A DNA stretch of 53,678 nt from Candidatus Magasanikiibacteriota bacterium (GTDB lineage Bacteria > Patescibacteriota > Patescibacteriia > Magasanikbacterales > UBA922): NCBI GenBank assembly GCA_016193335.1, contig JACPSK010000006.1, positions 1 to 53,678 of the forward strand, in the 5' to 3' direction. Positions within the stretch are counted from its first letter, which is position 1, and every line of letters starts with the position of its first letter. Position numbers and translations under genes: made by a program. The notes below the pieces were generated by a model. It was given only the letters and a program-made list of their open reading frames with translations. It did not search any database and had not been told where the DNA came from. This document shows, piece after piece, positions 3,167 through 30,549 of the stretch.

Positions 3167-3177
3167 ATGTGGTCTCG

Positions 3178-5451
3178 TTATAGATTCTTTAACTCATTTA
3201 AAACCTCCTCCACATTCCCATTGTGAACCAAGAAGAAATGGAGCTTACCCTTGCCGAGTTTTACCCATTCGTCAGCGATAAGGATTTTGTATCCAGTATC
3301 TTCGTTACTGATTCGGTCTTCGCCTTTCCATTCAAGAGCAACGATATTGCCTTTTTTGGTGAGGGCGATAAAATCGGGATAAAACTTATTTTTCTGCCAG
3401 CCTAGAATATAGAAGGGGTCTTGCTTTTCACGATTGCGAACCCAAAACTCAACATTCGGTAGGCTATCAAGGTCTAGGCGTTCAACAAAACTTAATTCCT
3501 CCTTGTTTAGCTTGTCGATTTTTTCGTAGTAATTTTTGTTGAACTCTTGGGGTATTTGCTCTTTGAGCGTGATTGTTTCAGGGAAGTTCTCAAACGCCTT
3601 GGTCGCAATCTTCTTTTTCGCCACAAACTCAATGAAACGCTTTTTGGCGTAGGCTTCAAGCACGCTGTTTATGGCTTCGTTCAAGCGATCAAGGAACAAG
3701 TAGCGATTGACGGAAAGCTCGGCCAAAGATTTCTGCTTTAGTTGGTAATCAACGGCTTTATCAATGAATTTTACTTTGTTGGGCTTATCAAGCAGGGTAA
3801 AGCGGAGCTTTTTATCAAGCCATTGCACCAATTCCTGTTTTGAAAAGTTTTTGTCGCGGTAAGTAAGATTAAGAATTTGCTGTTTGCCCTTGTGCCATTT
3901 GTTGTCGTCCTCAATATCAATAATGGCGCGACCGTCATTGTCATAATGAATTTCAAAATCAAATTCGGCGTTTTGTTTGGCAAGTTCAAAATCTTCGCCG
4001 ATCAGTTCCTCGAAAGTCAGTTTTTCGTCCTCTAAACTCATCATCGGCACGGCAAAATCTTTTTTCACGGCTCGGTTTACTTCTTTGGGGTCTTTTGCGG
4101 TATCGCCGTTTGATGAAGCACCAATCAAATCAAGTTTGCTGTAGCCGTTTCTTTCAAGTCCTGAAATGATGTTGCTGACCGCTTCATTGAAGTTTTTGGC
4201 GGAAGCGAAAATGTAGGAGCGGTTTAATGCCTCGTTTTTCTTTCGTTTCGCATAGGGCATACGGATAATACGCCCGATGATCTGCTCTACGGCGATTTTT
4301 GCACCGACATTTGCAACGGAAATGAGGACATAAGCAAAAGAACAGTCCCAACCCTCGGCAAGTGCGCTAACGGTTATGATGTAGCGAATTTTGCATTTCT
4401 TGCTGAATAAATCCACACCCTCTAAATCGTTTCGGTCTGATGTTTTGATTGCGATTTCGTCCTCGGAAATTTTGGCGGAAAGCAAATACTCTTTGATCTG
4501 TTCAACTGTCACGTTATTTTGTGTTTGGCTCTTTGGCTGCGCTTGGATAAGTGCAATAGGGCGTATGTATTCGCCTGTATTCTTTTTGCCTTCTTTTTCA
4601 AGTTCGGCTCGTTTCTCAAGTCCGCGAGCAACGGCGTTTTTCCATTGGGCGGAGCTTTCAAGCACAAGCGGAATTTTCACCATTTGCTCGTCTTTGAGTT
4701 CGGCTGGGGAAATGTCCACCAAAATATTACTGCCGGAGCGTGGCGTAGCGGTGTATTCAATTACAAAACTTGGATTCAGACTATTGAGAAAATCCATTGA
4801 AAGCTCGGTTTTGGTTTTGTGTCCTTCATCAATCACCACAAGCGGATTGCTCATGCGGACGACATTTGCGAGCGAGTTTATGATTGTACCTTCCTCGTCC
4901 TTCTCAAGATCGTCTCGGTCATCAAGATTTTCAAAATGGCTCAAGAGCGAGCCGTTTTCCTGATAAACTTTGTATTTCTTTTGCAGTGTTTTTTCTTTGC
5001 GGAAAGCCTCCAAGCTGGAAATGATAATGCAAAGATTGTCCTGCACATCTTCTTTTCTGATTCGCAATGCTTCCTCGTTTGAAAAAATACGCACGCCGTT
5101 TTGAAAAGCCTCGTCTAAAACCTGTCTATGCCAGTCATTGCGGTCTTTAAACTTCTTGAGTGTTTGGGTTTTTATGGCTTCAGACGGTACAAACCACATC
5201 ACAATACCTCTATCCATTTTGTGCTTGAGGAAAGAGCGCATGATTTCGTTGACGGCATGACAGCCGACAAGCGTTTTTCCTCCGCCGGTCGGGATTTTGA
5301 CGCAAACAAAAGGAACATCACCGAAAAAGTCGCCGTGATACGGTCGGTCGGTTTCGCCCATGAAGGCATATTTTGGCCCGACGGCCTCTATACCTTTGAG
5401 ATAGGCTTTGAGTTTGTCTAACGCTGATTGTTGATATTTTTTGAGTTCCAT
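3178..5451 (-). CDS. res: Type III restriction enzyme Res subunit
   Basis: PTGGGKT, DEGH, YTATP, EGWD, QIIGRIIR helicase motifs; C-terminal YPDF...EWKG PD-(D/E)xK nuclease. Confidence 0.9.
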   Translation of the reverse strand: MELKKYQQSALDKLKAYLKGIEAVGPKYAFMGETDRPYHGDFFGDVPFVCVKIPTGGGKTLVGCHAVNEIMRSFLKHKMDRGIVMWFVPSEAIKTQTLKKFKDRNDWHRQVLDEAFQNGVRIFSNEEALRIRKEDVQDNLCIIISSLEAFRKEKTLQKKYKVYQENGSLLSHFENLDDRDDLEKDEEGTIINSLANVVRMSNPLVVIDEGHKTKTELSMDFLNSLNPSFVIEYTATPRSGSNILVDISPAELKDEQMVKIPLVLESSAQWKNAVARGLEKRAELEKEGKKNTGEYIRPIALIQAQPKSQTQNNVTVEQIKEYLLSAKISEDEIAIKTSDRNDLEGVDLFSKKCKIRYIITVSALAEGWDCSFAYVLISVANVGAKIAVEQIIGRIIRMPYAKRKKNEALNRSYIFASAKNFNEAVSNIISGLERNGYSKLDLIGASSNGDTAKDPKEVNRAVKKDFAVPMMSLEDEKLTFEELIGEDFELAKQNAEFDFEIHYDNDGRAIIDIEDDNKWHKGKQQILNLTYRDKNFSKQELVQWLDKKLRFTLLDKPNKVKFIDKAVDYQLKQKSLAELSVNRYLFLDRLNEAINSVLEAYAKKRFIEFVAKKKIATKAFENFPETITLKEQIPQEFNKNYYEKIDKLNKEELSFVERLDLDSLPNVEFWVRNREKQDPFYILGWQKNKFYPDFIALTKKGNIVALEWKGEDRISNEDTGYKILIADEWVKLGKGKLHFFLVHNGNVEEVLNELKNL

Positions 5452-5453
5452 AA

Positions 5454-6998
5454 TTAGTAGATTTTAACTTCGTAGGGAATTTGCTTGAAGACAACATTGT
5501 ATTTTTCAAGCGTGGTTTCATCGAGTAAGCACTTGTCGGCGTAGACAACTTTTTTGCTATCGTTCTTTTTTAGTTTTTTCAAGAAAGATTTGCTCAACAC
5601 ATTTTCGCCTTTTTCTTTATAGATCAGATAATACTCGATTTCCGCGTACTCGCCGATATAATTTGCCGATACTTTGGCATGGTCAATGTTGGTTTGCGTT
5701 TCGGTAAAATAAATGTAGGTTGCGAATTGATCAAAGTCGCAGGTGTCCTCGATTTGACCTTCTTCATCAAATAGCGGTTTGCTGAGTTCGCAATATTCAA
5801 AGCCGTCTTTATATCCATATTTTTCACTTGCCCGTTTTACTCTTTCTGCAGTGATGTTTTTTGCGACCTCGTCTTCCATTTCAACAAGAATAAATTTGCG
5901 GTTTCCGCCATCCTCTTTGTTCAAGTCTAAAACGGCGTGGCCTGTTGTGCCCGAACCAGCGAAAGAATCCAGTATTAAATCGTTACTATTAGAGGAAAGT
6001 TGAATAATTCTTTTTAAAAGTCGAACAGGCTTAGGTGTTGCAAAGCCATTTTCAGGAAAAATATTTTTATAATCCTTTTTTGCCTCATCGTTACTTCCTA
6101 CTTCGTCATACAACCAAATAGTTTTTGGTATCACTCCTTGTTTCATTTCGTTTAGGTATTTTTTGAGACGTGGTACGGCATCGCCTTTTTTACCAAACCA
6201 AATTGTCCCTTCTTTGTCGGCTCCTTTTAATGTTTGTACGCTGTATCGAGGAAAAGTTCCGGCCGGTGGCCGCCATTTTACGCCATTTTCAAAAGTAAAT
6301 TCATATCCCGTGTCTGTGCCACTTTTTGCATGAAGTGGTTGGGTCATCCAAGGCCCCCGAGGATCGTTATCTGGATTTTTATAACGAGCGTCTTGCTCTT
6401 CTGTTCGCGCAATTAAATTGATATTAAAATTAGTATTCTTTTTATCTTTTGCGTAACAGACAATAAAATCATGGGTGGCTGAAAAATATTTTGCGTCATT
6501 ACTTTGGGTATATTTTTTTTGCCATATGATATTTGCAACAAAATTTTCTTCTCTAAAAATCTCATCCAATACCTGTTTCAAGTTGCAATGCTCGTTATCA
6601 TCAATGGATACAAATATAGAGCCGTCATCTGATAATAAATCTCTAAGTAACTTGAGGCGCGGATACATCATACAAAGCCATTTGTCATGCCGGCAAAGAT
6701 CCTCTGAATCTCGACCAACCACTTTTCCTAGCCATTTCTTGATTTTAGGAGAATTAACTTTGTCATTATAAATCCATCCTTCATTTCCCGTGTTATATGG
6801 TGGATCAATATAGATACATTTTACTTTGCCAGTATAAAAAGGCATGAGTGCTTTTAATGCTTCAAGATTGTCGCCGTGAATGATCAGATTTTGAGAATTG
6901 CCTACTGAAGCCGACTTAATTTTTTTGAGTAGCCGAAAGGGAACCTCTTTATCGTGGTTTACTACTGCTTCTTTTCCAATCCAGTTTAATGTAGGCAT
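5454..6998 (-). CDS. mod: Type III R-M Mod subunit (N6-adenine methyltransferase)
   Basis: MPTLNWIGK start, GDNLEAL, IYIDPPYNTG, TPKP, LDSFAGSGTT. Confidence 0.92.
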   Translation of the reverse strand: MPTLNWIGKEAVVNHDKEVPFRLLKKIKSASVGNSQNLIIHGDNLEALKALMPFYTGKVKCIYIDPPYNTGNEGWIYNDKVNSPKIKKWLGKVVGRDSEDLCRHDKWLCMMYPRLKLLRDLLSDDGSIFVSIDDNEHCNLKQVLDEIFREENFVANIIWQKKYTQSNDAKYFSATHDFIVCYAKDKKNTNFNINLIARTEEQDARYKNPDNDPRGPWMTQPLHAKSGTDTGYEFTFENGVKWRPPAGTFPRYSVQTLKGADKEGTIWFGKKGDAVPRLKKYLNEMKQGVIPKTIWLYDEVGSNDEAKKDYKNIFPENGFATPKPVRLLKRIIQLSSNSNDLILDSFAGSGTTGHAVLDLNKEDGGNRKFILVEMEDEVAKNITAERVKRASEKYGYKDGFEYCELSKPLFDEEGQIEDTCDFDQFATYIYFTETQTNIDHAKVSANYIGEYAEIEYYLIYKEKGENVLSKSFLKKLKKNDSKKVVYADKCLLDETTLEKYNVVFKQIPYEVKIY

Positions 6999-13010: not shown

Positions 13011-13970
13011 ATGGAACATATTTACAAAGAACTGAAAAAATACGGCTCAGTCAAAATCGATGAAGCTTTGAAAAAACACACTACTTTTAAGATAGGGGGC
13101 AATGCCCGTTTTTTTGTGTCTGTTGAAAATACTGATCGTCTTGTGGAACTTTTGCGTTTTTTGGACGCGGAAGGGATCAATCACATGGCGATTGGTGGCG
13201 GAAGCAATATGCTCGCTCATGATTCTGGTTTTGACGGGGTTTTGATACATATTAATACCAAGCAAAAGAGCGTAGAAGATAATGAAATTAGAGCAGAAGC
13301 CGGCTGTATAACGGTTGATATCGCGCAGTTTTCAATACAACACGGTTTAACCGGTTTTGAGTGGGGTGTGGGAGTGCCCGGCAGTATAGGCGGCGCGGTA
13401 CGAGGCAATGCCGGGGCTATGGGTTCTCAAATGCAAGATTCTCTGAAGAGTATAAGGGCCTATGAAGATGGAGAAATTTTAGATATGAATAAGGAGGCCT
13501 GTGCTTTTGGCTACCGGGATTCTATTTTCAAACATTCGTCAAAGATCGTTTTGTCTCTTACTTTGTCGCTCAAAAAAGCAGAAAATAAAGAAGGCATGAA
13601 AACCGCTTTGGGGCATTTGGCTTACAGAAATAAGACTCAGCCCAAGGGCTTTGCTTCCACTGGTTGCATATTTAAAAATCCTGACACCGAAACCAACAAA
13701 GTTTTGCTATTGAAACATTTTGATTCTCAAGACGAAAAAGTAAAACAATTTTTGAAAGTGGGAAAAATTTCCGCCGGTTGGCTTATTGAAAACGCCGGTT
13801 TAAAGGGTCTGAAGCAAGGGCAAGCTCTCATAAGTCCGGAACATGGCAATTTTATCGTCAATCTGGGAGTCGCTTCTTCTTCTGATGTTGTGGGGCTTAT
13901 TGAAAAAATAAAAGAGACGGTTTACACTACCTATGGTATTCTACTGGAGGAAGAAATACAAATTATATAG
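13011..13970 (+). CDS. murB: UDP-N-acetylenolpyruvoylglucosamine reductase
   Basis: HTTFKIGG, GGGSN, GVPGSIGGAVRGNAGA, GCIFKNP, HGNFIVN. Confidence 0.96.
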   Translation: MEHIYKELKKYGSVKIDEALKKHTTFKIGGNARFFVSVENTDRLVELLRFLDAEGINHMAIGGGSNMLAHDSGFDGVLIHINTKQKSVEDNEIRAEAGCITVDIAQFSIQHGLTGFEWGVGVPGSIGGAVRGNAGAMGSQMQDSLKSIRAYEDGEILDMNKEACAFGYRDSIFKHSSKIVLSLTLSLKKAENKEGMKTALGHLAYRNKTQPKGFASTGCIFKNPDTETNKVLLLKHFDSQDEKVKQFLKVGKISAGWLIENAGLKGLKQGQALISPEHGNFIVNLGVASSSDVVGLIEKIKETVYTTYGILLEEEIQII

Positions 13971-15129: not shown

Positions 15130-16401
15130 GTAGATACAAATAAAAGGTTACCCAAATCACTTTTCTAATTCTGGTATCCCACAGTGTTTTTGTAAAGAAA
15201 ATACGACTTGTAATCGTCGGTCAATTTCACGCTTCATGGTCAGCGGATTAAGCGTTTCATGTTCTTGTCGTAATTTTGTTTTTACTGTTTCACTGACGTC
15301 GTTTCGTTCTAACACTCGTTGGTACGGTGTTTTAGATCGTTTTTCTCTCGTTACTTTCCATAGTGCTCCAATCCGTTTTTTTGCAACAATTCGGCGCGAA
15401 GCGACGAAGTGATTTAAATACGGTGTAAGCACATCGTACACAGAATTAAGCGCACTGACAACCTCGGTGGCGTCAAGGCGTGTATAACCAACCCACCGAC
15501 GGACAATATGTCCGTTACGTTCTTCCACAAAACAGTTATCATTTTTTCGGTTCGGTCGTGAGCGGGTGAGCCGTACGCCTTGCTCTTCACACCAATCATG
15601 GCAGTGCCAGTTAATGAATTCACTCCCCGAATCCGGATGCCATTCGACAACAGGAAAAGGGAGCTCTTTAATCATCTGTACCATGCTGGTAACGGTGGCC
15701 GTTTGCCCTTTGTTCAGTTGTGCGCGGCGGGCACCCCACAATGTTGGCACATCAGTCGCATTGACCGTGTAAATGAAGTCGCCGACGAGCGTGTGGCCAC
15801 AGTGCGCCACGATGTCAATTTGTTCGGTGCCAACGGATGCGGTATCCCAATCACCGCTACGCACCGGGATGAGGGTATGAATGGCTCCGGTGCTGGTCGT
15901 GCTTTTACCGTGGACAACGAATCGTTTTCGCGCGAATTTCACTACCCGCTTTTTCATGGCGCCAAGGCTCATAGCGAGAAGCTTGGTCGTTGCCTCCGTA
16001 CAGTGTTTCCACTGTTTATCTCTTACGAGAATATGTACGTAGTCGGATAGCACGCCGTGGAGGTTCTCCGCGCATGGTTCGCTCGCCGTGTCCCACACGT
16101 CTTTAAGGGCAGCGATGACATCGGGTGTGTAAACCGTTTTACGTCCTCGTCGTTCTTCCGTACCGGTTCGGTGCATCTGGATGCGCCGAAATGAGCGTGG
16201 TACCGACTTCGGATGAACTCCGGCGATGAAACAGATGTTTTCCACTATTTTTCCTCGTTTCTTTTTATCCTTCCTGGCTTTAAGCCATTCCTGTAAATGC
16301 TCCTGGTAGATGTTGTTTTTGGTGGTCATATTCATATGATCACCATGGTAACCGAATTAGTATCTACCCGACAGATTTCGGTAACTGTTATTTGTATCTA
16401 C
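15130..16401 (-). mobile_element. Insertion sequence with ~29 bp imperfect terminal inverted repeats (ISNCY/IS481-like DDE)
   Basis: Left end GTAGATACAAATAAAAGGTTACCCAAATC; right end (reverse complement) GTAGATACAAATAACAGTTACCGAAATC; no clear target duplication. Confidence 0.8.
15157..16335 (-). CDS. DDE transposase (rve integrase core)
   Basis: QIDIVAHCG, HPDSGSEFIN, TRSRPNRKNDNCFVEERN, KTPYQRVL. Confidence 0.88.
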   Translation of the reverse strand: MNMTTKNNIYQEHLQEWLKARKDKKKRGKIVENICFIAGVHPKSVPRSFRRIQMHRTGTEERRGRKTVYTPDVIAALKDVWDTASEPCAENLHGVLSDYVHILVRDKQWKHCTEATTKLLAMSLGAMKKRVVKFARKRFVVHGKSTTSTGAIHTLIPVRSGDWDTASVGTEQIDIVAHCGHTLVGDFIYTVNATDVPTLWGARRAQLNKGQTATVTSMVQMIKELPFPVVEWHPDSGSEFINWHCHDWCEEQGVRLTRSRPNRKNDNCFVEERNGHIVRRWVGYTRLDATEVVSALNSVYDVLTPYLNHFVASRRIVAKKRIGALWKVTREKRSKTPYQRVLERNDVSETVKTKLRQEHETLNPLTMKREIDRRLQVVFSLQKHCGIPELEK

Positions 16402-19522: not shown

Positions 19523-19677
19523 TTTTGTTTTTTCCTTTTTTATCTCTGTCCTTTCTGAAGTTTTGACTCTGGGTTTACCAGACGAGCATGGTAATGTAGT
19601 TTTATTGACTCCGACGCGAAAAGTCCCAAATGGTGGAAAAATGTTCTAGATTTTCCCATAACTGGTATTATCAAGAG

Positions 19678-19699
19678 GATGCCCACAAGGCATCTTTTT
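19678..19699 (+). terminator. Possible terminator between secA and the terpene cyclase gene
   Basis: GATGCC-CACAA-GGCATC-TTTTT. Confidence 0.45.
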
Positions 19700-19759: not shown

Positions 19760-21712
19760 ATGACAGATAATATACAAAAGGGTATAGATTTTCTCATTTC
19801 AGAACAAAAGTCTAATAGCGCTTTTGCGTCCTTTTCCTCTCCAGACCCCTATTCCTTTACCACTGGCTTAAGATATCGTTCCAATTTCAGCCTTTCCATG
19901 ATTTTGTTGGCCAGCAAGGAGTTGTCTAAATATGACAAACGCGTAGAATCTCTGAGAGAGTATTTGGCTCTTTTTCTTTTGAAGGAAAAAAGTTCTTTTT
20001 GGTCTTTCAATTACTGGCAGAGAGATTCCGAAGAATATAAGAGACTTCCTTACCCCGATGATCTGGATGATACTTTTTCAGCTCTTGCGGCTTTGCATTC
20101 GTACAATCCGGATATTATAGATGGTTCAATATTGGCTTCTGTATCAAACCTGTTGCTAACAAATGAAATCCAAGAGGGTGGGCCGTATCGTACCTGGCTT
20201 CTCTCTTCTGACGCTGATCAAAAATATAGAGAAGACGTGGATTTTGTCGTCAACATCAATATCGCTTATTTTCTTTCATTATATGAAATTGAGCTTCCCA
20301 ATCTGTCGGCTTTTATCGATACTCATGTTGCTTCGGAATTGTATGCTTCAAAATATTATCCGGCTTCATATCAGGCCGTATATTTTTTGTCTCGTTTCTA
20401 TAAAGGACCATATCTTGAGAAGTTTCGTACCTATATACAGAGCCTTTACCATAGTGCGCTTGCCGAAGAACATAGCGTGCACGCCGCTTTGCTCTCTTCG
20501 GCCATGTTGAACCAACATAGCTTCTCGCCGGAAAGCACGCGAATGCTGGAACATATAACGCGAAGCCAGTTAAAAGACGGATCCTGGCCTGCTTTTGGAT
20601 TTTGTGTGGACCCGGAGATAAACGGGAAAACACACTATTCCGGTTCCCGAGCCTTAAGCACTGCTTTGTGTTTGGAAGCTCTGTGTTCTTATCAATCTAA
20701 AATTGAGATGCTTTCATCTGTTTTTTTGAGTCCTCATCAGACACCAGATAAGATATGTTCCTTCAGGACTCGGGTGCTGAAAAAGCTTTCAGATCAGCGT
20801 GCCGTTTTGCCGGAGATTTTGCTTTCGCCTTTCGATTGTGTAATGAACAGAATAGTACAACTGGATCTTTCTTATCCTATTTCCTCGCTTCCTTTTATCT
20901 TTGCCCAAGCCAACTCATGTTTGAGAGATATTAATAGCGCAACACTCGAAGATTTGGGCCTCGCGTCTCTTTATGGCTGGGCAGCGTATACCGCTTTTGA
21001 CGATTGTTGTGACGAGAATGCAAAAAATCGGATTTCCGTCGGCATTTATTGTTTTAGGAGAATGCAGACTTTATTTTTGTCTCTTATGAGACAGATTCCG
21101 TCTTTTGTATCTCTCATGGACACTATACTTGGCCGAGCTGAACATGCTTTGCAATGGGAAATAAGCAAAGCTCGGGTAGGGGAGTCCGGTATTTCTATTC
21201 CAGAATATGGCGATCGTTTGATTTTGGCCGACAGATCTCTCGGGCACGCGCTTGGCGTATTGGCTGTTTTTTTCTTTAAAGGTTTTTCGATTGGTTCTCC
21301 GGAGCTAAAGTCAATGCTTCGTTTTTTTGGACAACATCTTATCGCGAGACAACTCTCTGACGACATGCATGATGTTGAAGAGGATATAGATTTCGGACGT
21401 TTGAGTTTTGTCTGCGCAGACAGTCTCTCTTATCTGGATTTTGTGGCAAAAATTAATCAAAAAAATTTAAAGAAAATGAAGAAAGATATTTTGGAAAAGT
21501 TTTGGAGTGAACGTATCGGGGCTGTCGTGGATATTGGTTTATCTCACATTGAACAGGCTTTCCAGGCTCTTTCGGAGTTGAGAGACGTCTATGATGTCTC
21601 AATGTTCGCTTCACTTTTATCCCGTGATAAGGAACTTCTGACAGGCGCGAAAAAAGAAACACAGGCTATTCAGGCTTTTCTTAGATTTTTTAATCCGTCT
21701 TTACGCATTTAG
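19760..21712 (+). CDS. Putative bifunctional terpene enzyme: class II cyclase beta domain plus class I (prenyltransferase/terpene synthase) alpha domain
   Basis: N-half: FNYW...YPDDLDDT, DFVVNINI, SKYY, QW-type SQLKDGSW. C-half: AFDDCCDE and RQLSDDMHD aspartate-rich motifs. Confidence 0.7.
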   Translation: MTDNIQKGIDFLISEQKSNSAFASFSSPDPYSFTTGLRYRSNFSLSMILLASKELSKYDKRVESLREYLALFLLKEKSSFWSFNYWQRDSEEYKRLPYPDDLDDTFSALAALHSYNPDIIDGSILASVSNLLLTNEIQEGGPYRTWLLSSDADQKYREDVDFVVNINIAYFLSLYEIELPNLSAFIDTHVASELYASKYYPASYQAVYFLSRFYKGPYLEKFRTYIQSLYHSALAEEHSVHAALLSSAMLNQHSFSPESTRMLEHITRSQLKDGSWPAFGFCVDPEINGKTHYSGSRALSTALCLEALCSYQSKIEMLSSVFLSPHQTPDKICSFRTRVLKKLSDQRAVLPEILLSPFDCVMNRIVQLDLSYPISSLPFIFAQANSCLRDINSATLEDLGLASLYGWAAYTAFDDCCDENAKNRISVGIYCFRRMQTLFLSLMRQIPSFVSLMDTILGRAEHALQWEISKARVGESGISIPEYGDRLILADRSLGHALGVLAVFFFKGFSIGSPELKSMLRFFGQHLIARQLSDDMHDVEEDIDFGRLSFVCADSLSYLDFVAKINQKNLKKMKKDILEKFWSERIGAVVDIGLSHIEQAFQALSELRDVYDVSMFASLLSRDKELLTGAKKETQAIQAFLRFFNPSLRI

Positions 21713-21790: not shown

Positions 21791-23686
21791 CTAGGCCGTG
21801 TTGTCTTCTTGATCCGTTCCTCTTCTGGGACGATTCAAGACGCGAGAACCTGGCGCTCTGTCAAATCTGAGCACACGCTCAGTCTGAGTAGGCCTGGCCC
21901 CCTCAGGCATGACGGTAAACGAACAGATCGCAGTCTGTTTGTTTACTCGTTTGCCAAGACTTGTAAAGACCCGTTGGCCCACCACAGTCTCCGCTCCTGC
22001 TCTGAGGTTGGGCATCATGTTGCGCATGCCTGCGGACATGAGCTCTTTCAGAGCGGGCAAAGACACAGCTGTGGTCCCCGGGTCAGCCACCCCTTGGACG
22101 CGGGAGGCAAAGTTTACCTCCGGTCCAACGATGTCGAGGACACCGTTTATGATGGCCAAGGAGGCAGACCCGAAGTGCACGGCGATCCTGAGCTCAAAGG
22201 GCGAGCACTCGGCCAGTATGGCTTCGTGGATGCCGTCAGCGGCGCGGATGGCTGCCCAAATGACGTCAGCATGGTTCAGACCTCTGTGGTCTCCGGGGTA
22301 ACCCAGAGGAAAGTAGGCCATGCCGCCATCTCCCAAGGTTTTGGGTATCACCCCGCCTTCTCGGAGGATCGAACCCTGGGCCAGCTCATGCAAGCGCTTG
22401 ATCCGGGCGACCATTTCCCTCGAATCCCAACCCTTGGTGGTAAATCCGACCATGTCGAGGAAGATGACCGCCATCTCGAGCGGCAGATCCTCGAAGGTTC
22501 TTGGGTTGTACAAGAGGGCCGAGATCACTTCTTCGCTGTCCGGAACCGTGCCCCGAAGCTTGCGACGATGCGCCGCGACTTCGGCATCAGCCTGATCCAG
22601 CTTTTGGCTCGCGGCGCTGAGGAGCCTTTCAGTTTGAGCCTTGCGCTCCGTCCTCCTCATGATCGCGTCCGCGACAAAGAAGAAGAAGCTCCGGAGGCGT
22701 TGCGGCCGCCAGGTGACCTCGAAGGCCGAGTTCCGGAAGCGATGTTCGGATCGATCCGAACACTGCAACAAGACCGGACCACGCAAGACAGGATGTTGGG
22801 CCGGTGAACCATCAGGCTTGCGGCAGACCGTGCAAGGCGTCTGGAGACTTACGTCGTCCAGCACCCGGATGGCCGGCAGAAGTCCTTGTATAGGACTTTC
22901 CACAGCTCCTGAAGTGCTTGTGATCAGCCCGTCTTTCCTGGCCGGCAGATACACGCGCTTGCCAAAAACGCGACCGTTGATCTTGAGAAGGCCGCCTTCC
23001 TCATCCCAGTCCACGCTGGAATCGGGGGCGTACCTTTCCACAAGAGCCTGTGGCGTCATAGCGAGAGCGCTGAGGCGAGGCAAGGGTTCTTTTTCCTGGC
23101 CCCAGAACAGCTGCACTCCCCGTCCGTGTCCGGGTATGAAGCTCGTAATGGACCAGAAGTCTTCAACCGGCGGCGTGTTGTTATGATCATGGACCATCAC
23201 GATCACGCCGTTGCCGGCTCCGGTCTGTACGAAGCGTATACGCTTGTTGCGAGGGTCGAGGCATTTTTCGGCCTCCACCTCGACGTTGCGATACCCATCA
23301 AGCGGGCTCGTGAGTCGGCGGCCCAGCCAGGTGGCGGCAAAGCTGGCCTTGAGAGCCATGGTGCCAAAAGCCGTGTGACGGCTCGCGGCGCCGGCTTCAA
23401 AGAGATGCCAGCCGTGTCCCAATACTTGGATCATGGCCGCTTCCACGAGCCGCCATTCTTCCATGCTCACCCGCAGGTCTGGGTAAGGCCGGATCAAACC
23501 GGTATGCCGGTTCATCTCGTCCGACAAATCCGCGCAAGCCCGCGCAAGCTCCGAACTCAGAGGTTTCATGGCTAGGAGGAAACGCCCCACGCCATCTTTC
23601 CCCGAGTAATCGCGCTCAAAATAAGCGCGATACGTGGCCCAGTTCGGGCCCAAGTTGATCCAACGCCTGCCGTTCCCAGTCATCAT
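21791..23686 (-). CDS. Class III adenylate/guanylate cyclase with an N-terminal putative sensor domain
   Basis: VIFLDMVGFT, KTLGDG, LRIAVHFG, DIVGPEVNFASRVQ; coiled coil before the cyclase; start set at 23686 after a GAGGGGG SD; GC-rich. Confidence 0.85.
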   Translation of the reverse strand: MMTGNGRRWINLGPNWATYRAYFERDYSGKDGVGRFLLAMKPLSSELARACADLSDEMNRHTGLIRPYPDLRVSMEEWRLVEAAMIQVLGHGWHLFEAGAASRHTAFGTMALKASFAATWLGRRLTSPLDGYRNVEVEAEKCLDPRNKRIRFVQTGAGNGVIVMVHDHNNTPPVEDFWSITSFIPGHGRGVQLFWGQEKEPLPRLSALAMTPQALVERYAPDSSVDWDEEGGLLKINGRVFGKRVYLPARKDGLITSTSGAVESPIQGLLPAIRVLDDVSLQTPCTVCRKPDGSPAQHPVLRGPVLLQCSDRSEHRFRNSAFEVTWRPQRLRSFFFFVADAIMRRTERKAQTERLLSAASQKLDQADAEVAAHRRKLRGTVPDSEEVISALLYNPRTFEDLPLEMAVIFLDMVGFTTKGWDSREMVARIKRLHELAQGSILREGGVIPKTLGDGGMAYFPLGYPGDHRGLNHADVIWAAIRAADGIHEAILAECSPFELRIAVHFGSASLAIINGVLDIVGPEVNFASRVQGVADPGTTAVSLPALKELMSAGMRNMMPNLRAGAETVVGQRVFTSLGKRVNKQTAICSFTVMPEGARPTQTERVLRFDRAPGSRVLNRPRRGTDQEDNTA

Positions 23687-23869
23687 CTTGCCCCCCCTCA
23701 TCTTATGAGAAAAAAGAACTACCTCATACTGTGTGTGTCTGTATTCAATCAGCAGAATGTTTTTTTGTCAAGATAATTATCTAATTTTAGCTATTTTTTC
23801 TTTAGGTTCATTGGTATCTCTGCTATTTTTTGTTATACTTATATAAATTTTGACGAAATTCTTGATTAT

Positions 23870-25315
23870 ATGTTTCAGAACAGATCTGTTCAGTTATTAT
23901 TTGGTATTTATGTGCGCTTAGCCTTTTTAGTGGTGAGTGTTCTTCATTACGGAGCTATACTCATAGGCGAACATTTTTTCCTTAAAGAAGACAGACCCAG
24001 ATTGTGGCGTCTGGCTGTGCACCGTCACAATCGCGTTATGTTGAAGATCGCGGGAATTAAGCTTGATATAAAAAGTCCTGTCCCTGATTTGGACGGCCCG
24101 GCGCTTTTTGCCACCAATCATCCCTCCATTTTTGATGGTTTTGTGTTTTTTTCTTTGCTGGGCCCTGATATTATACCGGTTACGGCTCCTGCGGCCGATT
24201 TCGCTTTTCCTTTTAACAAAGTATTTCCCAAAATGGGCGTTATAGATATTGTGAGAGATAAAGAAGACGAAAGAAAATACAAAAAGAGCTACACAAAAAA
24301 AGCAGGTTTGGAAAAAATTATTTCAACCTTAAAAGATGGTAAAAAAGTTTTGATTTTTCCGGAAGGTCATTTGGAACGAATTAAAGAACTGCACTACATA
24401 CATACGGGAACGGCGCGCGTATCTCTGAGGTCAAAGAGCCTAGTAATAATGGCCACCTTGATTGGATTAGAGAAAATAGCCATAGATAATATCAGGCTGA
24501 GGCCAGGAACCATACATGTATATTTCGGGCGAGCTTTGCAAGCGCCGGCCATTTCCAAACATCTTCCGTTCCGCAAAGTTGTTATTGCCTTCACCAAAGA
24601 TATAGAAAGAGAACTCATTAGAATGCTGCCTTCCCGCTATATTCCTGATTACATAAAAAGACCGGGTGGAGACTCAATAGGCGTTTTTATAGACGTGGAC
24701 AAGACCGTCTACCGTGGGTATTCTCAAAAAGATTTTTTAAGATTTTTGGTTAAACACAAAAAAATTTCTCGTTTTCACTATTACAGGGTATTCGCGTATC
24801 TTTTATTGGAAAAATGCAGGCTTATTTCGCATCAGACTTTGTCCGAGAGGGCTTTGTTGATCTTGAAAGGATATTCAGTCGCCAGAGTTGAAAAAGAAGC
24901 TGAGCGTTTTTTTAACCAAAAAGCGGTGTTCCGTCTTAACGCTCATATGTTGCATATTATAAAAGACCATGCTGAACAAGGACATCATCTAGTCTTTGTC
25001 ACAGAGACGATTTCCCCCTTGGCACGTCAGTTTGAGAGGTATTTTAAGACCTATTCCAGTTTGGATACGGTGATTCATGTTTCAGGAGGAAGGTACACAG
25101 GAGTCATGGCGCGTTATTGTTGGGGTCGGGAAAAAGCTCTGCTCACCCAGTGCTATGCTTTGGAACATCATATTGATCTGAAAAAAAGTTATGCCTACGC
25201 TGATTCCATTAGTGATGTATTTTTTTTGGAATCAGTGGGTCATCCGGTGGCAGTAAAGCCAAAACAAAAATTAAAAATAACTGCCATGCAACGTGGCTGG
25301 CAGATTTTGGTTTAA
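23870..25315 (+). CDS. PlsC-type acyltransferase fused to a HAD-IB phosphatase
   Basis: NHPSIFD (HxxxxD), IFPEG; FIDVDKT (DxDxT), GREKA, AYADSISD. Confidence 0.85.
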   Translation: MFQNRSVQLLFGIYVRLAFLVVSVLHYGAILIGEHFFLKEDRPRLWRLAVHRHNRVMLKIAGIKLDIKSPVPDLDGPALFATNHPSIFDGFVFFSLLGPDIIPVTAPAADFAFPFNKVFPKMGVIDIVRDKEDERKYKKSYTKKAGLEKIISTLKDGKKVLIFPEGHLERIKELHYIHTGTARVSLRSKSLVIMATLIGLEKIAIDNIRLRPGTIHVYFGRALQAPAISKHLPFRKVVIAFTKDIERELIRMLPSRYIPDYIKRPGGDSIGVFIDVDKTVYRGYSQKDFLRFLVKHKKISRFHYYRVFAYLLLEKCRLISHQTLSERALLILKGYSVARVEKEAERFFNQKAVFRLNAHMLHIIKDHAEQGHHLVFVTETISPLARQFERYFKTYSSLDTVIHVSGGRYTGVMARYCWGREKALLTQCYALEHHIDLKKSYAYADSISDVFFLESVGHPVAVKPKQKLKITAMQRGWQILV

Positions 25316-26477: not shown

Positions 26478-26518
26478 TTTGAAACTGGCTCAAAATTATT
26501 TTTGAGCCGAGGCTCTAG
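26478..26518. repeat. Dispersed palindromic repeat copy between convergent genes
   Basis: TTTGAAACTGGCTCAAAATTATTTTTGAGCCGAGGCTCTAG; near-identical to the reverse complement of 52427-52466. Confidence 0.75.
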
Positions 26519-27048
26519 ACAATTTCCTTGCTCAACAAACTGGTCTTTTTTGCGTAGTAAGTTCCCGTTTCGTAGATTCCGGCGAGGATGCAAATATAAA
26601 ATAAATCAGCAAAAAGACTGTTTTTGAAAAAGGGTATGGCCATGACATAGCTCTGAACCAATCCGTTTAGATTGTGCGCATACATAGTCCCAAAAAGCCA
26701 CACCGCCGCGTTCGTAATTAAGAAAAAAATAATTGATCCGAGCATAGTGCCTCCTATGATCCTGCTCAGGCGTCTTTTTTTTCTTATTATTAAACCTATC
26801 AGTCCCATGATGATAAATCCCAGATACACGGATATCATAATGGCAGGATTGTAAAATCCTATAATCATATCACTCAAAAACATGGCACTGAGCGGAAGCA
26901 GTAAAGCTATACGTTTTGGAAGATATACTCCGCCAAAAATGGCCAGGGCTCCTATGGGAGCGAAATTCGCGGGATGGGGGAGGAGCCTGGCGCTCACTCC
27001 AAGAGCAAGGGTGATGAGAACAATAAAAATATCGTTTTTATTTTTCAT
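26515..27048 (-). CDS. DUF6580-type membrane protein, ECF S-component-like (putative cobalamin uptake)
   Basis: RLLPHPANFAPIGALAIFGG, MFLSD, FFLITNAAVW, YVMAIPFF; multiple TM helices; last gene of the riboswitch operon. Confidence 0.7.
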   Translation of the reverse strand: MKNKNDIFIVLITLALGVSARLLPHPANFAPIGALAIFGGVYLPKRIALLLPLSAMFLSDMIIGFYNPAIMISVYLGFIIMGLIGLIIRKKRRLSRIIGGTMLGSIIFFLITNAAVWLFGTMYAHNLNGLVQSYVMAIPFFKNSLFADLFYICILAGIYETGTYYAKKTSLLSKEIV

Positions 27049-27110
27049 ATAGGTATCGCGATGTTTTGTCGTCTTATTTGACTGAGTTGGAAATAATTTC
27101 AGTCAGCTTA

Positions 27111-29870
27111 TTATACCAGAGTGCGGATAAAGCGCCAGCCGATGAATACTCCCAGACTGAGAGTCGCCACGAGAGCGCTGTTAAAAATTTTTTTGACAAT
27201 CCTGGCTATAAGAGGTTCAGATTCTGGTATTTGCTCAATGCCTTTCTCTTCTTCAATTTTTTGGTCCTCTGTGTTTTGTCCTTGATCTGCTTGTTGGCCT
27301 GAAATTTCGGGCTCAGCATTTCCTTCCGCTTTATTTTCTGTGTCCGATATTTTTTTTTCGTTTAAGCTTTGAGTCTTCTTCGTTTCGGAAAGATTGGAAG
27401 CGGAGCTTTGGGCCGCTTTGTTTGTTTGGTCTTGTCCTGGTGCGGATTCTTTTTCTTTGTTGTTTTGGATCATCCTTTCGTCTGCTTGTTTTTCCGGCTC
27501 TGTTTTGGCTTCAGACATCGGGGCTTCAATGATTTGCGTGGAATCTGCGTTTGTCTCTATGTTTGGAATCGGGAAACCCCCGCTCCCACTTTGTGTTGTG
27601 TCCCCTTTGTTGTTTTGGCTTGGACTTTGTGGTTTTGTGAAAGCAAACAATAGTTGTTCCCATGTCTTTTTTTGACTTGCCGGTATGGCATAAGCAGTGG
27701 CCCAGATTCTGTTGTTTATGTTTTCAGAAGCCAAGATGCCACCGTCTTCACCTTGTTGGGCAGCGAGATAATCAAAAGGATTTTTATTATTTTTAACCCA
27801 GAGCTCTGGATCTTCGCCAAGAGCCAGAATACCTTGAATTGCCCAACTGCTGCTGTATGTATTGCCAAATCCCGCGTCTGATCCTTGCTCTGCCACAAGA
27901 TATGAGCGGGCCTTTGAGAGAGCTTCTTTGACGCCTGCTTTATCCGTAAAGGCGGATAAAGCTTGAATGCCGGCCGCAGTCATATCTACGCTTCCCCAGG
28001 AACCTTCTGTTTGTTTTGAGAGTATGAAATCAGCGCTTTTCGAGATCATTGATTCTGTCGCGGCATATCCGGCTTTGTTCAAAACAATGAGAGCAAAAAT
28101 GTCGTCGTTCACCAGATTTGAATCTCCAAATTGTGTTCCATCGAAACCTGCCGTGATCTGTTCTATGTAATTTAAATTAGTGTCAGAGTATGGATTAATC
28201 CCCAGAGCCATTAGAGCCATGGCTCTTCGTTCAAAATCCGCGAGCGTATTTATCCCGATGAAAGGGCTTGGATTTGATAAAAGATATGTTTTTAGAAGAT
28301 TTTTATTTTCACTGTTTAATCCATGCGAGGCGAAACTTAAGGCTGTCCAGTCTGTGTATAAGGTCGAACTGCCAAAAGAGCCGTCCGTATTTTGATGTTT
28401 AATCAAGAAATCTACGGCTGATTCCAGATTAAATATACTTTTTGAAACATTACTGTCCGTTTGAATCCCTTGCGAATTTGTCTGAGGTGGCTGGGCCACG
28501 CTGTTCCCACAGGTTGTGCAACTTTGATTCACTGTTTGCGCCAGAACTTTTACTTTGAGTGCATGACTTCTGCTTTTTCCGTTTTCATGCGCGAATACCA
28601 AGAAATCGCCGTCCTTATCCGGTATCCATGTCAAAGTTCCTGAGGCCGATTGTACAAGCGTTGAGTTGATATAAAAGTCCAAGCTTCCTGAATAGGGCTC
28701 AAATATATTGCTTTCATCGCTCCAGATCAGAGAAGAAATGTTTATTGGCGTGCCGACTTCTGTGCTTGTGGCAGAAGCTTCCAAGAATAGCGGATCCATA
28801 TCCCAAGCCCCATAGGTCAAAAGCAGCTCATCTCCATTGTTCAGTTCAAGATCAGCAAGCCCCAGATCCGCCAGCTTATTATTATGCCGTACAATCCAAA
28901 ATTCACTGAAATCAACCGCGTTTTCTATGGTATTTATACGGTCCAAGAACAATCCGAAAGACAACGCCGTAACCTGATAGCTCAGAAGCCCCAAGTCAGA
29001 CGCCTGTTCAAGAGCACAGATGGCTTTTGAAGAAGAGAAGGAGAATGTGGAACTGGCGCTGTCGCTTACACTGCAAGCTTCTTCCAAAGTCAGACCGGTG
29101 TCTACTGCTTCGTTCAATCCGCTTACAATATGCAGAGTAATTTGGGGAGCCGGCGGCTTCTCTGCAATAGAAAGAGAAATAGCCTTGCTTCTTGTTTTGT
29201 TTTTTTGTTCAACATATATAGAAAAATCGCCTGTATTTTGAGCTTCCCAACTCAAGCTGCTGCTCGTAATTTCATATATCTCTGTGCCAATATGTATGCT
29301 ACTGCTTACGATCTGATTTTGTGTGATGAAGGCGTTTGATTCGTCTTCCCAACTGAAGATATTGATATCAATCAAATCGCCAAGTTCTGCCGTGCTGGTG
29401 GAAAGTTCCACTTTCAAGGGATCCATATCCCAAGCCCCATAGGTCAAAAGCAGTTCATCTCCATTGTTCAGTTCAAGATCAGCAAGCCCCAGATCCGCCA
29501 GCTTATTATTATGCCGCACAATCCAAAATTCACTGAAATCAACCGCGTTTTCCGTATTATTTATACGGTCCAAGAACAATCCGAAAGACGACGCCGTAAC
29601 CTGGTAGCTCAGAAGCCCCAACTCAGACGCCTGCTCAAGAGCACAGATGGCTTTTGAAGAAGAGAAAGAGAATATGGAACTGGCGCTGTCGTTTATTTCA
29701 CAGTCCGCTTCAAGCGTTATGGTTTTTTGGACAATATGTTCAACAGGGGATTCGATTCTGAGCTGGACCTGGATGGCGTCTTGGGCCGCTGTCTGCCCGG
29801 GCCAGAGAAAAATCACGGCGAGAAATCCCAGAGATATTGTCTGAATCAAGGCTTTATTCTTCTTTTTCAT
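27111..29870 (-). CDS. Surface protein with two DUF4430 (transcobalamin beta-like) domains, Ig-like spacers, a prenyltransferase/squalene-oxidase-repeat barrel, a stalk and a C-terminal TM anchor
   Basis: Signal peptide; duplicated FGLFLDRIN...FW...G...L..GD motif; QNTDGSFG, QTEGSW, QGSDAGFG, QGEDGG repeats; low-complexity linker; TM followed by RFIR. Confidence 0.75.
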   Translation of the reverse strand: MKKKNKALIQTISLGFLAVIFLWPGQTAAQDAIQVQLRIESPVEHIVQKTITLEADCEINDSASSIFSFSSSKAICALEQASELGLLSYQVTASSFGLFLDRINNTENAVDFSEFWIVRHNNKLADLGLADLELNNGDELLLTYGAWDMDPLKVELSTSTAELGDLIDINIFSWEDESNAFITQNQIVSSSIHIGTEIYEITSSSLSWEAQNTGDFSIYVEQKNKTRSKAISLSIAEKPPAPQITLHIVSGLNEAVDTGLTLEEACSVSDSASSTFSFSSSKAICALEQASDLGLLSYQVTALSFGLFLDRINTIENAVDFSEFWIVRHNNKLADLGLADLELNNGDELLLTYGAWDMDPLFLEASATSTEVGTPINISSLIWSDESNIFEPYSGSLDFYINSTLVQSASGTLTWIPDKDGDFLVFAHENGKSRSHALKVKVLAQTVNQSCTTCGNSVAQPPQTNSQGIQTDSNVSKSIFNLESAVDFLIKHQNTDGSFGSSTLYTDWTALSFASHGLNSENKNLLKTYLLSNPSPFIGINTLADFERRAMALMALGINPYSDTNLNYIEQITAGFDGTQFGDSNLVNDDIFALIVLNKAGYAATESMISKSADFILSKQTEGSWGSVDMTAAGIQALSAFTDKAGVKEALSKARSYLVAEQGSDAGFGNTYSSSWAIQGILALGEDPELWVKNNKNPFDYLAAQQGEDGGILASENINNRIWATAYAIPASQKKTWEQLLFAFTKPQSPSQNNKGDTTQSGSGGFPIPNIETNADSTQIIEAPMSEAKTEPEKQADERMIQNNKEKESAPGQDQTNKAAQSSASNLSETKKTQSLNEKKISDTENKAEGNAEPEISGQQADQGQNTEDQKIEEEKGIEQIPESEPLIARIVKKIFNSALVATLSLGVFIGWRFIRTLV
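28792..29691. repeat. 273 bp intragenic direct repeat (28792-29064 and 29419-29691)
   Basis: About 12 mismatches by manual alignment; offset 627 bp, in frame. Confidence 0.9.
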
Positions 29871-30549
29871 AGTTCCATTCTATTATGTCATCCTGTTTAA
29901 TATGATAGGCAGAGACGCCTATCTGGGCTTTGACGCCATTGATATAATAAATCCAGTATTGTTTTTCTTTTGTGTTGTTTGATAATTCGTTTATGCTCTC
30001 TATGAAGAAGCCAAGCCCTGGGCCAAAGTTTTTGCTTGTAAATGTGAAGCCTGGATTTTTTTGGGCCGTTTCATTCATTGCTTCATAAAGCGATGCGTTT
30101 ACCCCCACGTCCATTTCATAGTTTTCTTCTTTTATTTTGAGTGTGAAATGTTTTGTCTCAGAGGATTTTGCTTCCTTTTCCGGTGTTTCTGTGAATGGCG
30201 CGTCATCTCTTTGAGATCTTGGGGCAGTGTCAGCCGCATAATTCGAATTTGTTTGAGCATCTGATGTTTTTTCATTGGCAGCAGCTTTCGGGTTCAAGGC
30301 TTTGGCGTTGTTTTGATATTTTTGTTTGTCAGTATCTGTTTCTTCAAGGGCTGTATCTTTGTTATTTTTTGCGGTTTTTTCCGAAGTATCTTGGATTTCT
30401 ATTCCATTCTCTTGCAAAGCATATATTTTTTTTGAGAAAAAATTTGGCGCGGATGAATTGAAACCTAGCACGCCGCTTGTGAGAGCCAGTATTCCAAAAA
30501 ATCCGAGGAGGATATAATAGATTTTATGTTTTTGATGAAAATCACGCAT
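29854..30549 (-). CDS. Membrane-anchored DUF4430 domain protein (CbrS-like)
   Basis: N-terminal TM, low-complexity stalk, GLGFFIESIN...YWIYYING...GVSAY...DDIIEWNY. Confidence 0.8.
   Translation of the reverse strand: MRDFHQKHKIYYILLGFFGILALTSGVLGFNSSAPNFFSKKIYALQENGIEIQDTSEKTAKNNKDTALEETDTDKQKYQNNAKALNPKAAANEKTSDAQTNSNYAADTAPRSQRDDAPFTETPEKEAKSSETKHFTLKIKEENYEMDVGVNASLYEAMNETAQKNPGFTFTSKNFGPGLGFFIESINELSNNTKEKQYWIYYINGVKAQIGVSAYHIKQDDIIEWNYEKEE

Follow-up and report, generated by a model that had tools for sequence, protein, structure and literature searches.

A single polypeptide that joins a class II terpene cyclase to an isoprenoid domain raises a simple question in a bacterium of the Candidate Phyla Radiation (CPR, Patescibacteria): on what does it act, and what does it make? 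The gene that raises the question lies at 19760-21712 (+) in the window, by which we mean the whole 53,678-nucleotide stretch of contig JACPSK010000006.1 of a Candidatus Magasanikiibacteriota bacterium. It is an open reading frame (ORF) of 650 amino acids with an ATG start and no internal stop, and it is present as a single copy in the genome. The initial annotation of this DNA saw in its product a one-protein pathway that ionises or elongates a free prenyl diphosphate and cyclises it. On the evidence below, the enzyme is probably a bifunctional maturase of a ribosomal peptide, comparable to ChrPC and ComQ, which would prenylate a Trp of the peptide and then cyclise the prenyl chain.

Fold and conserved residues of the two domains

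In the AlphaFold2 model of the full-length protein (predicted local distance difference test, pLDDT, 93; predicted template modelling score, pTM, 0.87), residues 1-320 form a single barrel with about 12 helices, residues from about 321 to 330 form a linker of low confidence, and residues 330-650 are all-helical. The features of the gene are listed here, with the drimenol synthase AsDMS as the reference for the N-terminal domain.

19760..21712, + strand: gene of the two-domain enzyme (cyclase beta domain and prenyltransferase-like alpha domain), stop codon included; from the ORF listing and translation
19760..20719, + strand: class II terpene cyclase domain (TC-beta, a single alpha/alpha-6 barrel), residues 1-320; from phmmer, the family profile and Foldseek
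20054..20074, + strand: PDDLDDT, the DxDD general-acid motif, residues 99-105; from the alignment with AsDMS and from invariance
20354..20359, + strand: Y199-Y200, with Y200 aligned to Y427 of AsDMS
20567..20587, + strand: QW-type motif QLKDGSW, residues 270-276; family consensus Q..G.W, aligned with QLADGGW of AsDMS
20747..21709, + strand: alpha domain with the trans-isoprenyl diphosphate synthase (trans-IDS) fold, the proposed Trp prenyltransferase (P) domain, residues 330-650; from the domain model and structural alignment
20999..21013, + strand: first Asp-rich motif DDCCD, D414-D418, family consensus YDDFLD; at the C-terminal end of helix 393-417
21350..21385, + strand: second Asp-rich motif QLSDDMHDVEED, Q531-D542, consensus QLNDDAHDWExD; Gln three residues before DDxxD, at the end of helix 514-537

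The 650-residue protein has no match in Pfam or NCBIfam; PF28380, which is pre-assigned to some of its homologues, is outside the Pfam version searched. A family search scored 7998 candidates and gave at least 610 homologues at E<=1e-3, and conservation is taken from an alignment of the best 120 full-length homologues (604-722 amino acids, 32-38% identity, 84-100% query coverage). D101, D103, T105, Y200, D414, D418, R433, Q531, D534, H537, D538 and D542 are invariant in 120/120, while D100, D104, Y199, W276 and D535 are kept in at least 90%. The initial annotation had placed a DxDD motif (PDDLDDT) and a QW motif (QLKDGSW) within a single barrel in the N-terminal half and two DDxxD motifs (DDCCD at 414-418 and QLSDDMHD at 531-538) in the C-terminal half. 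All of these are borne out by the translation, by their conservation in the family, including the key Asp residues of the C-terminal half, and by the modelled barrel. Judged from the alignment, conservation in the family excludes that the four motifs are chance strings. The proposed beta-alpha assignment is also right, the protein being a class II single-beta cyclase followed by a domain of the isoprenoid-synthase fold.

The cyclase domain is related to that of AsDMS in sequence and in structure. A phmmer search of the PDB matches residues 93-308 to the AsDMS cyclase domain (E 1.1e-10), and the family profile matches it over residues 28-310 (E 1e-15). With Foldseek, AsDMS is the best match (E 1.9e-11), followed by the single-domain cyclases 8pak, 6ij1 and MstE (6sbb, E 5e-5) and then by squalene-hopene cyclase. 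The acid pair D101/D103 corresponds to D331/D333 of AsDMS and Y200 to Y427, in a residue mapping counted by hand from the printed alignment. In the available part of PMC12365925, D331, D333 and Y427 are described as essential, with Y427 as the hydrogen-bond partner of the acid. The residues of AsDMS that bind the diphosphate are not kept: Y373 is replaced by W146, R378 corresponds to R157, which is variable in the family, R380 is replaced by D159, R425 by K198, where the family consensus is Pro, and R513 by E286. This set of residues is a feature of drimenol synthase and is not general to class II cyclases. As far as the aligned residues tell, the class II acid machinery is intact and the head-group site differs from that of AsDMS. 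Since the diphosphate binders are not kept, a head group other than diphosphate is plausible for this domain, as in MstE, which recognises a non-diphosphate aromatic head and to which AsDMS is likened in the available part of PMC12365925.

The alpha domain, modelled alone, has a pLDDT of 94.6 and a pTM of 0.91. In structural alignments with VIA-align, its best match is solanesyl diphosphate synthase 9jqs (Z 23.4, root-mean-square deviation 3.0 Å, 286/325 residues aligned); the indole prenyltransferase Ord1 has Z 20.8 and the prenyltransferase domain of PvCPS Z 20.5, while class I cyclases have Z values of at most 15.6. The 39 top structural rows are all prenyl synthases or prenyltransferases of the isoprenyl diphosphate synthase (IPPS) fold, including Ord1, MoeN5, fused prenyltransferase domains and a small subunit, and every top match of the domain in Foldseek is a trans-prenyltransferase. 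Of the relatives proposed for structural comparison in the initial annotation, drimenol synthase and MstE are matched by the cyclase domain. The model places both DDxxD motifs at the C-terminal ends of long helices, as expected for the trans-IDS fold.

The 13 canonical synthases co-located with members of the family have invariant K23, R26, R72, R73, K160, K216 and K226 (in GGKxxR, the RRG after the first motif, KT and GK), whereas R433 (R104 in domain numbering) is the sole invariant basic residue of the alpha domain besides His. The absence of these basic residues argues against ordinary chain elongation. The invariant Q531 and D534 match a pair that the available text of PMC13290415 ties to Trp recognition; transferases of the ChrPC and NctPC type are described there as having a Gln just before the second motif. 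No stand-alone relatives of the alpha domain were found among the shorter proteins searched, and a search with the alpha-domain profile gives 20 matches, mostly fragments or truncated forms of the enzyme family. By features, the nearest entries in the ESM Atlas (0.95-0.96) are uncharacterised proteins of about 320 amino acids from other phyla, which are leads only.

A peptide, kinase and regulator beside the enzyme

A scan of one genome per species gives 361 relatives among 431 pattern matches, and the best 80 of these relatives supply the locus counts. The 80 loci come from Microgenomates, Levyibacteriota, Daviesbacteria, Shapirobacteria, Saccharimonadia, Doudnabacteria and Paceibacterota, plus records with other labels. 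The non-CPR labels, taken at face value, are rejected as artefacts: five genomes so labelled are 0.9-1.6 Mb in size with ribosomal protein L30 in 0/5, compared with 13/14 controls, and the enzyme of locus L014 ('uncultured Gammaproteobacteria') is identical to that of L015 ('Candidatus Microgenomates'). Several such assemblies seem to carry unreliable taxonomy labels in the public records. The genome of the window (1.106 Mb, 8 contigs, 93% complete) and the Patescibacteria lineages named among the homologues are consistent with the probable CPR origin that had been assigned to this DNA. In an even sample of the phylum (401 genomes, 320 genera), the enzyme occurs in 13 genomes and 12 genera, and in 0/3 genomes of the window's own family. 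A PF00348 polyprenyl synthase is carried by 157 of the 401, so the accompanying remark that CPR bacteria generally lack lipid and secondary metabolism is too broad. The DNA data sets that contain the enzyme gene are groundwater metagenomes, which may be its source, and no RNA data sets are listed as containing it.

When the ORFs of the 80 loci are called and clustered, the enzyme gene is seen to have regular neighbours. A response regulator of the OmpR type is encoded on the same strand in 68 loci, and a multi-pass membrane histidine kinase, identified with Pfam, in 67; 4-7 membrane segments are predicted in the first 230 residues of 61 of 68 kinases. The median gap between the kinase and enzyme genes is 0 bp (63 loci), and the two genes are translationally coupled. 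A canonical polyprenyl synthase gene is adjacent, 3' of the enzyme gene, in 13 loci; these are dispersed across the family tree, with at least 7 changes.

The gap between the regulator and kinase genes, with a median of 228 bp (52 loci), contains an unannotated ORF of 34-43 codons, so that the usual order is regulator-peptide-kinase-enzyme. The consensus of the peptide is M-x-x-(I/V)-x-x-x-(I/L)-L-T-D-K-x-x-R, a variable stretch, (P)W and then 1-7 residues. Of 49 gaps, 47 contain an ORF with this motif when 30-nt flanks are included and 41 when the strict gap is used; on the reverse strand 0/49 contain one, and 100 shuffles give a mean of 0.32/49. A hidden Markov model (HMM) of the peptide matches 70 of the 80 loci, with one match in each and always on the strand of the enzyme; 47 of the 70 were training sequences, and the loci missed are mostly cut off upstream. 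The N-terminal 16 residues are kept, the middle is variable, and an invariant Trp stands 1-7 residues before a C terminus of variable length. L9, R15 and W34 are invariant in the 47 peptides, and all six synonymous codons are used for the invariant Leu and likewise for the invariant Arg. This codon usage indicates selection on the peptide, and hence that the ORF is translated.

The enzyme and the cassette are inherited together. The sensor domain of the kinase (first 220 residues) is found in 21 of the 401 sampled genomes, that is, in 13/13 with the enzyme and in 8/388 without it. PF00348 is found in 11 of the 13 enzyme-bearing genomes, the two misses being the two fragmentary enzyme matches, and in 146 of the 388 others. 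These figures are counts and not tests, and related genomes are not independent.

A complex model of the enzyme and peptide of this genome has an interaction prediction score from aligned errors (ipSAE) of 0.70 (0.69, 0.73 and 0.70 in the runs), whereas the best of three controls has 0.01. The ipSAE mark, which 58/80 solved complexes and 2/110 mismatched pairs reach, is rough here, as our own alignments were supplied. Contacts agree by at least 63% between runs, and the partner pLDDT is at least 62. In the model, residues 1-25 of the peptide, including L9 and R15, occupy a groove between the two domains, lined on the cyclase side by residues 122-141 and 172-180 and on the alpha side by residues 540, 578-582 and 633-646. 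In this groove, L132, E136, G140, G141, L172, L179, W582, E633 and F640, nine residues in all, are invariant or nearly so. Catalysis alone would leave their conservation unexplained. At the level of a prediction, the model supports binding of the leader to the enzyme.

In the genome of the window, the parts of this module are scattered over two contigs, with the enzyme gene in the window and its partners on contig C1. The enzyme gene follows secA, and a gene of high guanine-plus-cytosine (GC) content lies downstream of it on the other strand. The other parts, and a hairpin in front of the enzyme gene, are as follows.

C1:25444-26892: orthologous kinase, 536 bits, with five predicted membrane segments
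C1:27016-27123: peptide of 36 amino acids ending in NPWAP, the one HMM match of the genome (E 1e-7), immediately upstream of the kinase
C1:27318-28286: polyprenyl synthase, the only PF00348 protein of the genome; the peptide gene lies between it and the kinase
C1:40990-41661: response regulator, 14 kb away
19673..19699, + strand: terminator-like hairpin, an 11-bp stem and a T run, between secA and the enzyme gene; a pattern match only, from a consensus scan with 4 sites compared with 2.9 expected in shuffles

The hairpin, as a pattern match, suggests that the enzyme gene is transcribed on its own. Just downstream of the cassette kinase, at C1:22592-24631 (L097:6593-8629, -), is a SecD with two inserted peptidyl-prolyl isomerase domains of the PPIC type (Rotamase_3, 149 bits).

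Peptide or free prenyl diphosphate as the possible substrate

If the enzyme is a peptide maturase, the separate canonical polyprenyl synthase (C1:27318-28286) would supply a prenyl diphosphate of C10-C20, and the conserved N-terminal leader of the precursor peptide would dock in the groove between the two domains. The alpha domain would hold the prenyl diphosphate by way of Mg2+ bound to its Asp-rich motifs, ionise it and alkylate the indole of the invariant Trp. In the cyclase domain, D103, assisted by D101 and Y200, would then protonate the distal double bond of the peptide-bound chain to give a drimane-like ring system. The modified peptide would presumably be released, and the co-inherited multi-pass histidine kinase, with the OmpR-type regulator, would sense it. 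In this scheme we infer the substrate, the order of the steps, the chain length, the export and the signalling. Of the pathway proposed in the initial annotation, ionisation and cyclisation of the chain probably hold, with a peptide Trp as the acceptor; the self-contained role in making a free terpene probably does not. A self-contained pathway is not the best supported in view of the linkage to the cassette, the missing Arg residues of AsDMS, the missing basic residues of the synthases, the separate polyprenyl synthase and the docking model of the leader.

It is unlikely that the enzyme makes a free terpenoid, either by elongation in the alpha domain and cyclisation in the beta domain, as in PvCPS, or by a class II reaction followed by a class I reaction. 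The product would then be a membrane-ordering lipid or a small terpenoid under the control of the kinase and regulator, for which the control of a lipid desaturase by DesK-DesR offers an analogy. The structures nearest to the alpha domain, at Z 21-23, are chain-elongating synthases and lie slightly above Ord1, with the PvCPS domain also among the matches, and both Asp-rich motifs are full DDxxD motifs; the second (D534, D535 and D538, with D542 in addition) is of the kind found in chain-elongating synthases and is not the NDxxx of a pseudo second Asp-rich motif (pseudo-SARM), as in ComQ, StheQ and Ord1. These features favour a free terpenoid and tell against a peptide acceptor. AsDMS, the closest relative of the cyclase domain, acts on free farnesyl diphosphate (FPP), polyprenyl synthase genes adjoin the enzyme gene at the 13 loci mentioned, the kinases are multi-pass membrane proteins, and cassettes without the enzyme would be expected if the enzyme were a mere regulated output. 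Against this, the canonical synthases have seven invariant Lys or Arg residues where the alpha domain has one invariant Arg, and the arginines that bind the diphosphate in AsDMS are absent from the cyclase domain. The alpha domain has no match to PF00348 at E<=10, and hhalign with the 13 co-located canonical synthases gives a probability of 0.2% (E 0.27), so that no profile-profile homology to these synthases was found. A free terpenoid would also leave unexplained that the enzyme always occurs with the peptide-kinase cassette (13/13 genomes) and that the surface residues touching the leader in the complex model are conserved. Finally, a drimenyl-type diphosphate is non-allylic, which makes its ionisation unfavourable.

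The small ORF might instead be no substrate, being a regulatory leader or arrest peptide, of which TnaC and SecM are examples, or a modulator of the kinase, with the enzyme linked to it indirectly. Its position directly upstream of the kinase gene, the retention of the leader and the PW motif in two enzyme-less genomes, and the presence of Trp and Pro, which are typical of arrest peptides, would all fit such a role. Arrest peptides, however, are conserved at the C-terminal end, whereas the conservation here has the pattern of a precursor of a ribosomally synthesised and post-translationally modified peptide (RiPP). Together with the difference between the leader-enzyme complex model and its best control, this makes a non-substrate role improbable. 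More improbable still, to the point that we give it very little weight, is that the protein is a pseudo-enzyme, which would bind isoprenoids without catalysis and serve the kinase as an adaptor or sensor. The translational coupling of the two genes would be natural for such a protein, but the acid pair, its Tyr partner and the metal-binding Asp residues are invariant in the 120 homologues, and their invariance at such low identity to the window protein argues for retained catalysis.

Further points tell against a peptide maturase. Trp34 is not confidently placed in the complex model. No sequence link of the alpha domain to a characterised family was found: besides the hhalign result, the family profile, searched against the PDB, matches no synthase, no Pfam model matches, and Ord1 is undetected by sequence. 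The Gln before the second motif is not discriminating, as the FQIxDD of the canonical synthases here also has it, and ChrPC is compared by description and not by sequence. As for the cassette, 8 of the 21 sensor-positive genomes had no enzyme match, and a renewed search with the family profile in five of the eight (99-100% complete) found no enzyme. Four enzyme-less loci were fetched, and two of them keep the regulator, the Trp peptide and the kinase in order (L100 in genome G256 and L102 in G277); the role of the peptide and its leader does not, therefore, strictly need the enzyme. In the genome of the window, the enzyme copy has no adjoining cassette and is unlinked from the peptide and kinase, and its branch in the family tree is longer than any other (1.8, median 0.62), although every invariant residue is kept. 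The origin of the prenyl donor is also unexplained: a search for genes of the mevalonate and methylerythritol phosphate (MEP) pathways, as the initial annotation had envisaged, found no IspH, HMG-CoA reductase or mevalonate kinase in this 93%-complete genome.

The supply of isoprenoids varies within the family. In five enzyme-bearing genomes from five families, IspH is present in two, HMG-CoA reductase in one and neither in two, while UppS is present in four. This variation indicates that the family is not tied to one route to isopentenyl diphosphate (IPP). UppS (a cis-prenyltransferase, PF01255) was not found in the 93%-complete genome of the window; the enzyme family as its replacement is rejected because of the four UppS-bearing genomes just mentioned. 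Despite the lack of UppS, MurB (13011-13970) and a Mur ligase are encoded here, as are an ArnC-like polyprenyl-phosphate glycosyltransferase and two MraY-like GT4 proteins. Two candidates for donor synthesis are rejected: the single GHMP kinase of the genome is not a mevalonate kinase but an HddA-like heptose kinase in a glycosylation operon, and the product of 47165-47863 (+) is not an isopentenyl phosphate kinase but an archaeal-type UMP kinase (TIGR02076, 172.5 bits, cut-off 158). The bacterial model gives this UMP kinase only 46.8 bits.

If the peptide maturase is accepted, a wider role may be considered, which we offer tentatively, as possible rather than probable. The module would serve cell-to-cell or cell-to-host signalling specific to Patescibacteria, with a pheromone that is a ribosomal peptide bearing a cyclised terpene on its Trp, made by the enzyme and read by an intramembrane-sensing kinase. 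The cassette genomes without the enzyme would use the unmodified peptide or listen to their neighbours, the unlinked and fast-evolving copy of the window would mark a divergence in signal specificity, a new 'pherotype', and, as the genome has no recognisable IPP pathway, the terpene donor would have to be host-derived, so that the signal would read host contact. The ultra-small Patescibacteria make up a large share of bacterial diversity, and how they sense each other or their hosts is almost unstudied; a compact module of peptide, enzyme, kinase and regulator would give a testable handle on their signalling. If true, it would also add a further phylum, and a function in signalling, to the terpene-cyclised ribosomal peptides, whose chemistry was published only in 2024. 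Enzymology would gain a minimal beta-alpha cyclase/prenyltransferase for which a groove that binds the leader is predicted. The genes of the module are scattered in the present genome, an arrangement in which it can function or else decay, and this genome raises the question of where a prenyl donor comes from without a MEP or mevalonate pathway.

Gene surroundings and related systems

On either side of the enzyme gene are ORFs with weak similarities. The 392-residue ORF at 15157-16335 (-), two genes upstream, is weakly similar to IS3/IS481 transposases (E 2e-7 and 5e-7, far below the cut-off) and may be linked to the separation of the enzyme from its cassette. Downstream, at 21791-23701 (-), a 636-residue ORF occupies a 2-kb stretch of 55.6% GC, compared with about 43% around it; residues 410-555 match an adenylate/guanylate cyclase weakly (29 bits), and no NCBIfam model matches. 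This high-GC stretch, directly downstream of the enzyme gene, may be foreign DNA. It is followed at 23870-25315 (+), two genes downstream of the enzyme, by a 481-residue fusion of a PlsC-type acyltransferase and a HAD-IB phosphatase, and at 26515-30549 (-) by a DUF6580 membrane protein (168 bits) and then proteins of 919 and 231 residues, each with DUF4430. The three neighbouring genes at 1745-6998 (-), which code for an AAA/SMC_N ATPase, a ResIII helicase and an N6_N4 DNA methylase, resemble a unit for restriction-modification or defence. The 858-residue product of 41059-43635 (-) is a type IV coupling protein similar to TrwB/VirD4 (TrwB_AAD_bind, TraG-D_C), consistent with the conjugation-type secretion system that Patescibacteria reportedly have. 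In the two enzyme-less loci that keep the cassette, the genes downstream encode an ECF-type (extracytoplasmic function) sigma factor and DUF5667 (L100) and RadC (L102).

Among known systems, AsDMS of Aquimarina spongiae (PDB 9mhs, 9m7d) is the closest relative of the N-terminal domain by both sequence and fold. The two have a single beta barrel, the DxD acid pair, the Tyr and the QW motif in common, whereas the fusion partner is a HAD phosphatase in AsDMS and an alpha domain here, and the Arg residues for the diphosphate of FPP in AsDMS are absent here. Fungal chimeras of the PvCPS type (PDB 7s09, 8v0f) also have a class II cyclase fused to a C-terminal domain of the IPPS fold. The cyclase of PvCPS is a beta-gamma didomain, its C-terminal domain is a true geranylgeranyl diphosphate (GGPP) synthase and its substrates are free diphosphates, whereas the window protein has one barrel and is missing the basic residues of the synthases.

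The all-alpha indole prenyltransferases Ord1 and XiaM follow the same chemical logic. An enzyme of the IPPS fold farnesylates indole, according to the available text of PMC12510300, and in the xiamycin pathway a linear indole-sesquiterpene precursor is later cyclised to a decalin, according to that of PMC5481743. As described there, their substrate is free indole or a Trp derivative, the two steps belong to separate enzymes, and the cyclase is non-canonical.

ChrPC belongs to the fused 'PC' maturases of ribosomal peptides, which the accessible portion of PMC13290415 credits to Hubrich et al., Chem 2024. It consists, in that account, of a trans-IDS-like Trp prenyltransferase domain and a cyclase domain, which closes the prenyl group into a ring once it is installed; NctPC uses the same two-step logic with an ABBA-fold transferase and an MstE-like cyclase. 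The likeness to ChrPC, which is known by description, lies in one polypeptide with a Trp prenyltransferase, here a putative one, and a single-domain class II cyclase, in a small Trp peptide as the probable substrate, and in the Gln before the second motif. In the window enzyme the cyclase is N-terminal. The enzyme differs in that the best 80 loci of its family all belong to Patescibacteria, and in its two-component cassette, which the consulted part of PMC13290415 does not mention for ChrPC. No paper connecting CPR, Patescibacteria or Saccharibacteria with terpene cyclases or with ComQ/ComX came up in a literature search; Hubrich et al. 2024, which is outside its coverage, may list CPR homologues. 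The kind of enzyme is already published (ChrPC, 2024); for the CPR cassette and its sensing context, no description appears to exist in the literature searched.

In the quorum-sensing cassette ComQXPA of Bacillus and in StheQ/StheX of Sphaerobacter, an enzyme of the IPPS fold prenylates a Trp near the C terminus of a small neighbouring peptide. They resemble the present module in the fold and the first motif of the enzyme, in the place of the Trp in the peptide, and in a linked multi-pass kinase and regulator; in the available part of the preprint 10.64898/2026.08.29.745113, StheQ and ComQ have a DDxxD first motif and the pseudo-SARM NDxxx as the second. The module described here differs from ComQXPA, as far as the latter is described, in the added cyclase domain, the full DDxxD, the OmpR-type regulator, the order regulator-peptide-kinase-enzyme and the lack of a PF00348/ComQ sequence signal. 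ComA is a regulator of another type than OmpR. Membership of the ComQXPA system is not claimed for the enzyme, but the likeness suggests, by analogy, that it works in the way that system does.

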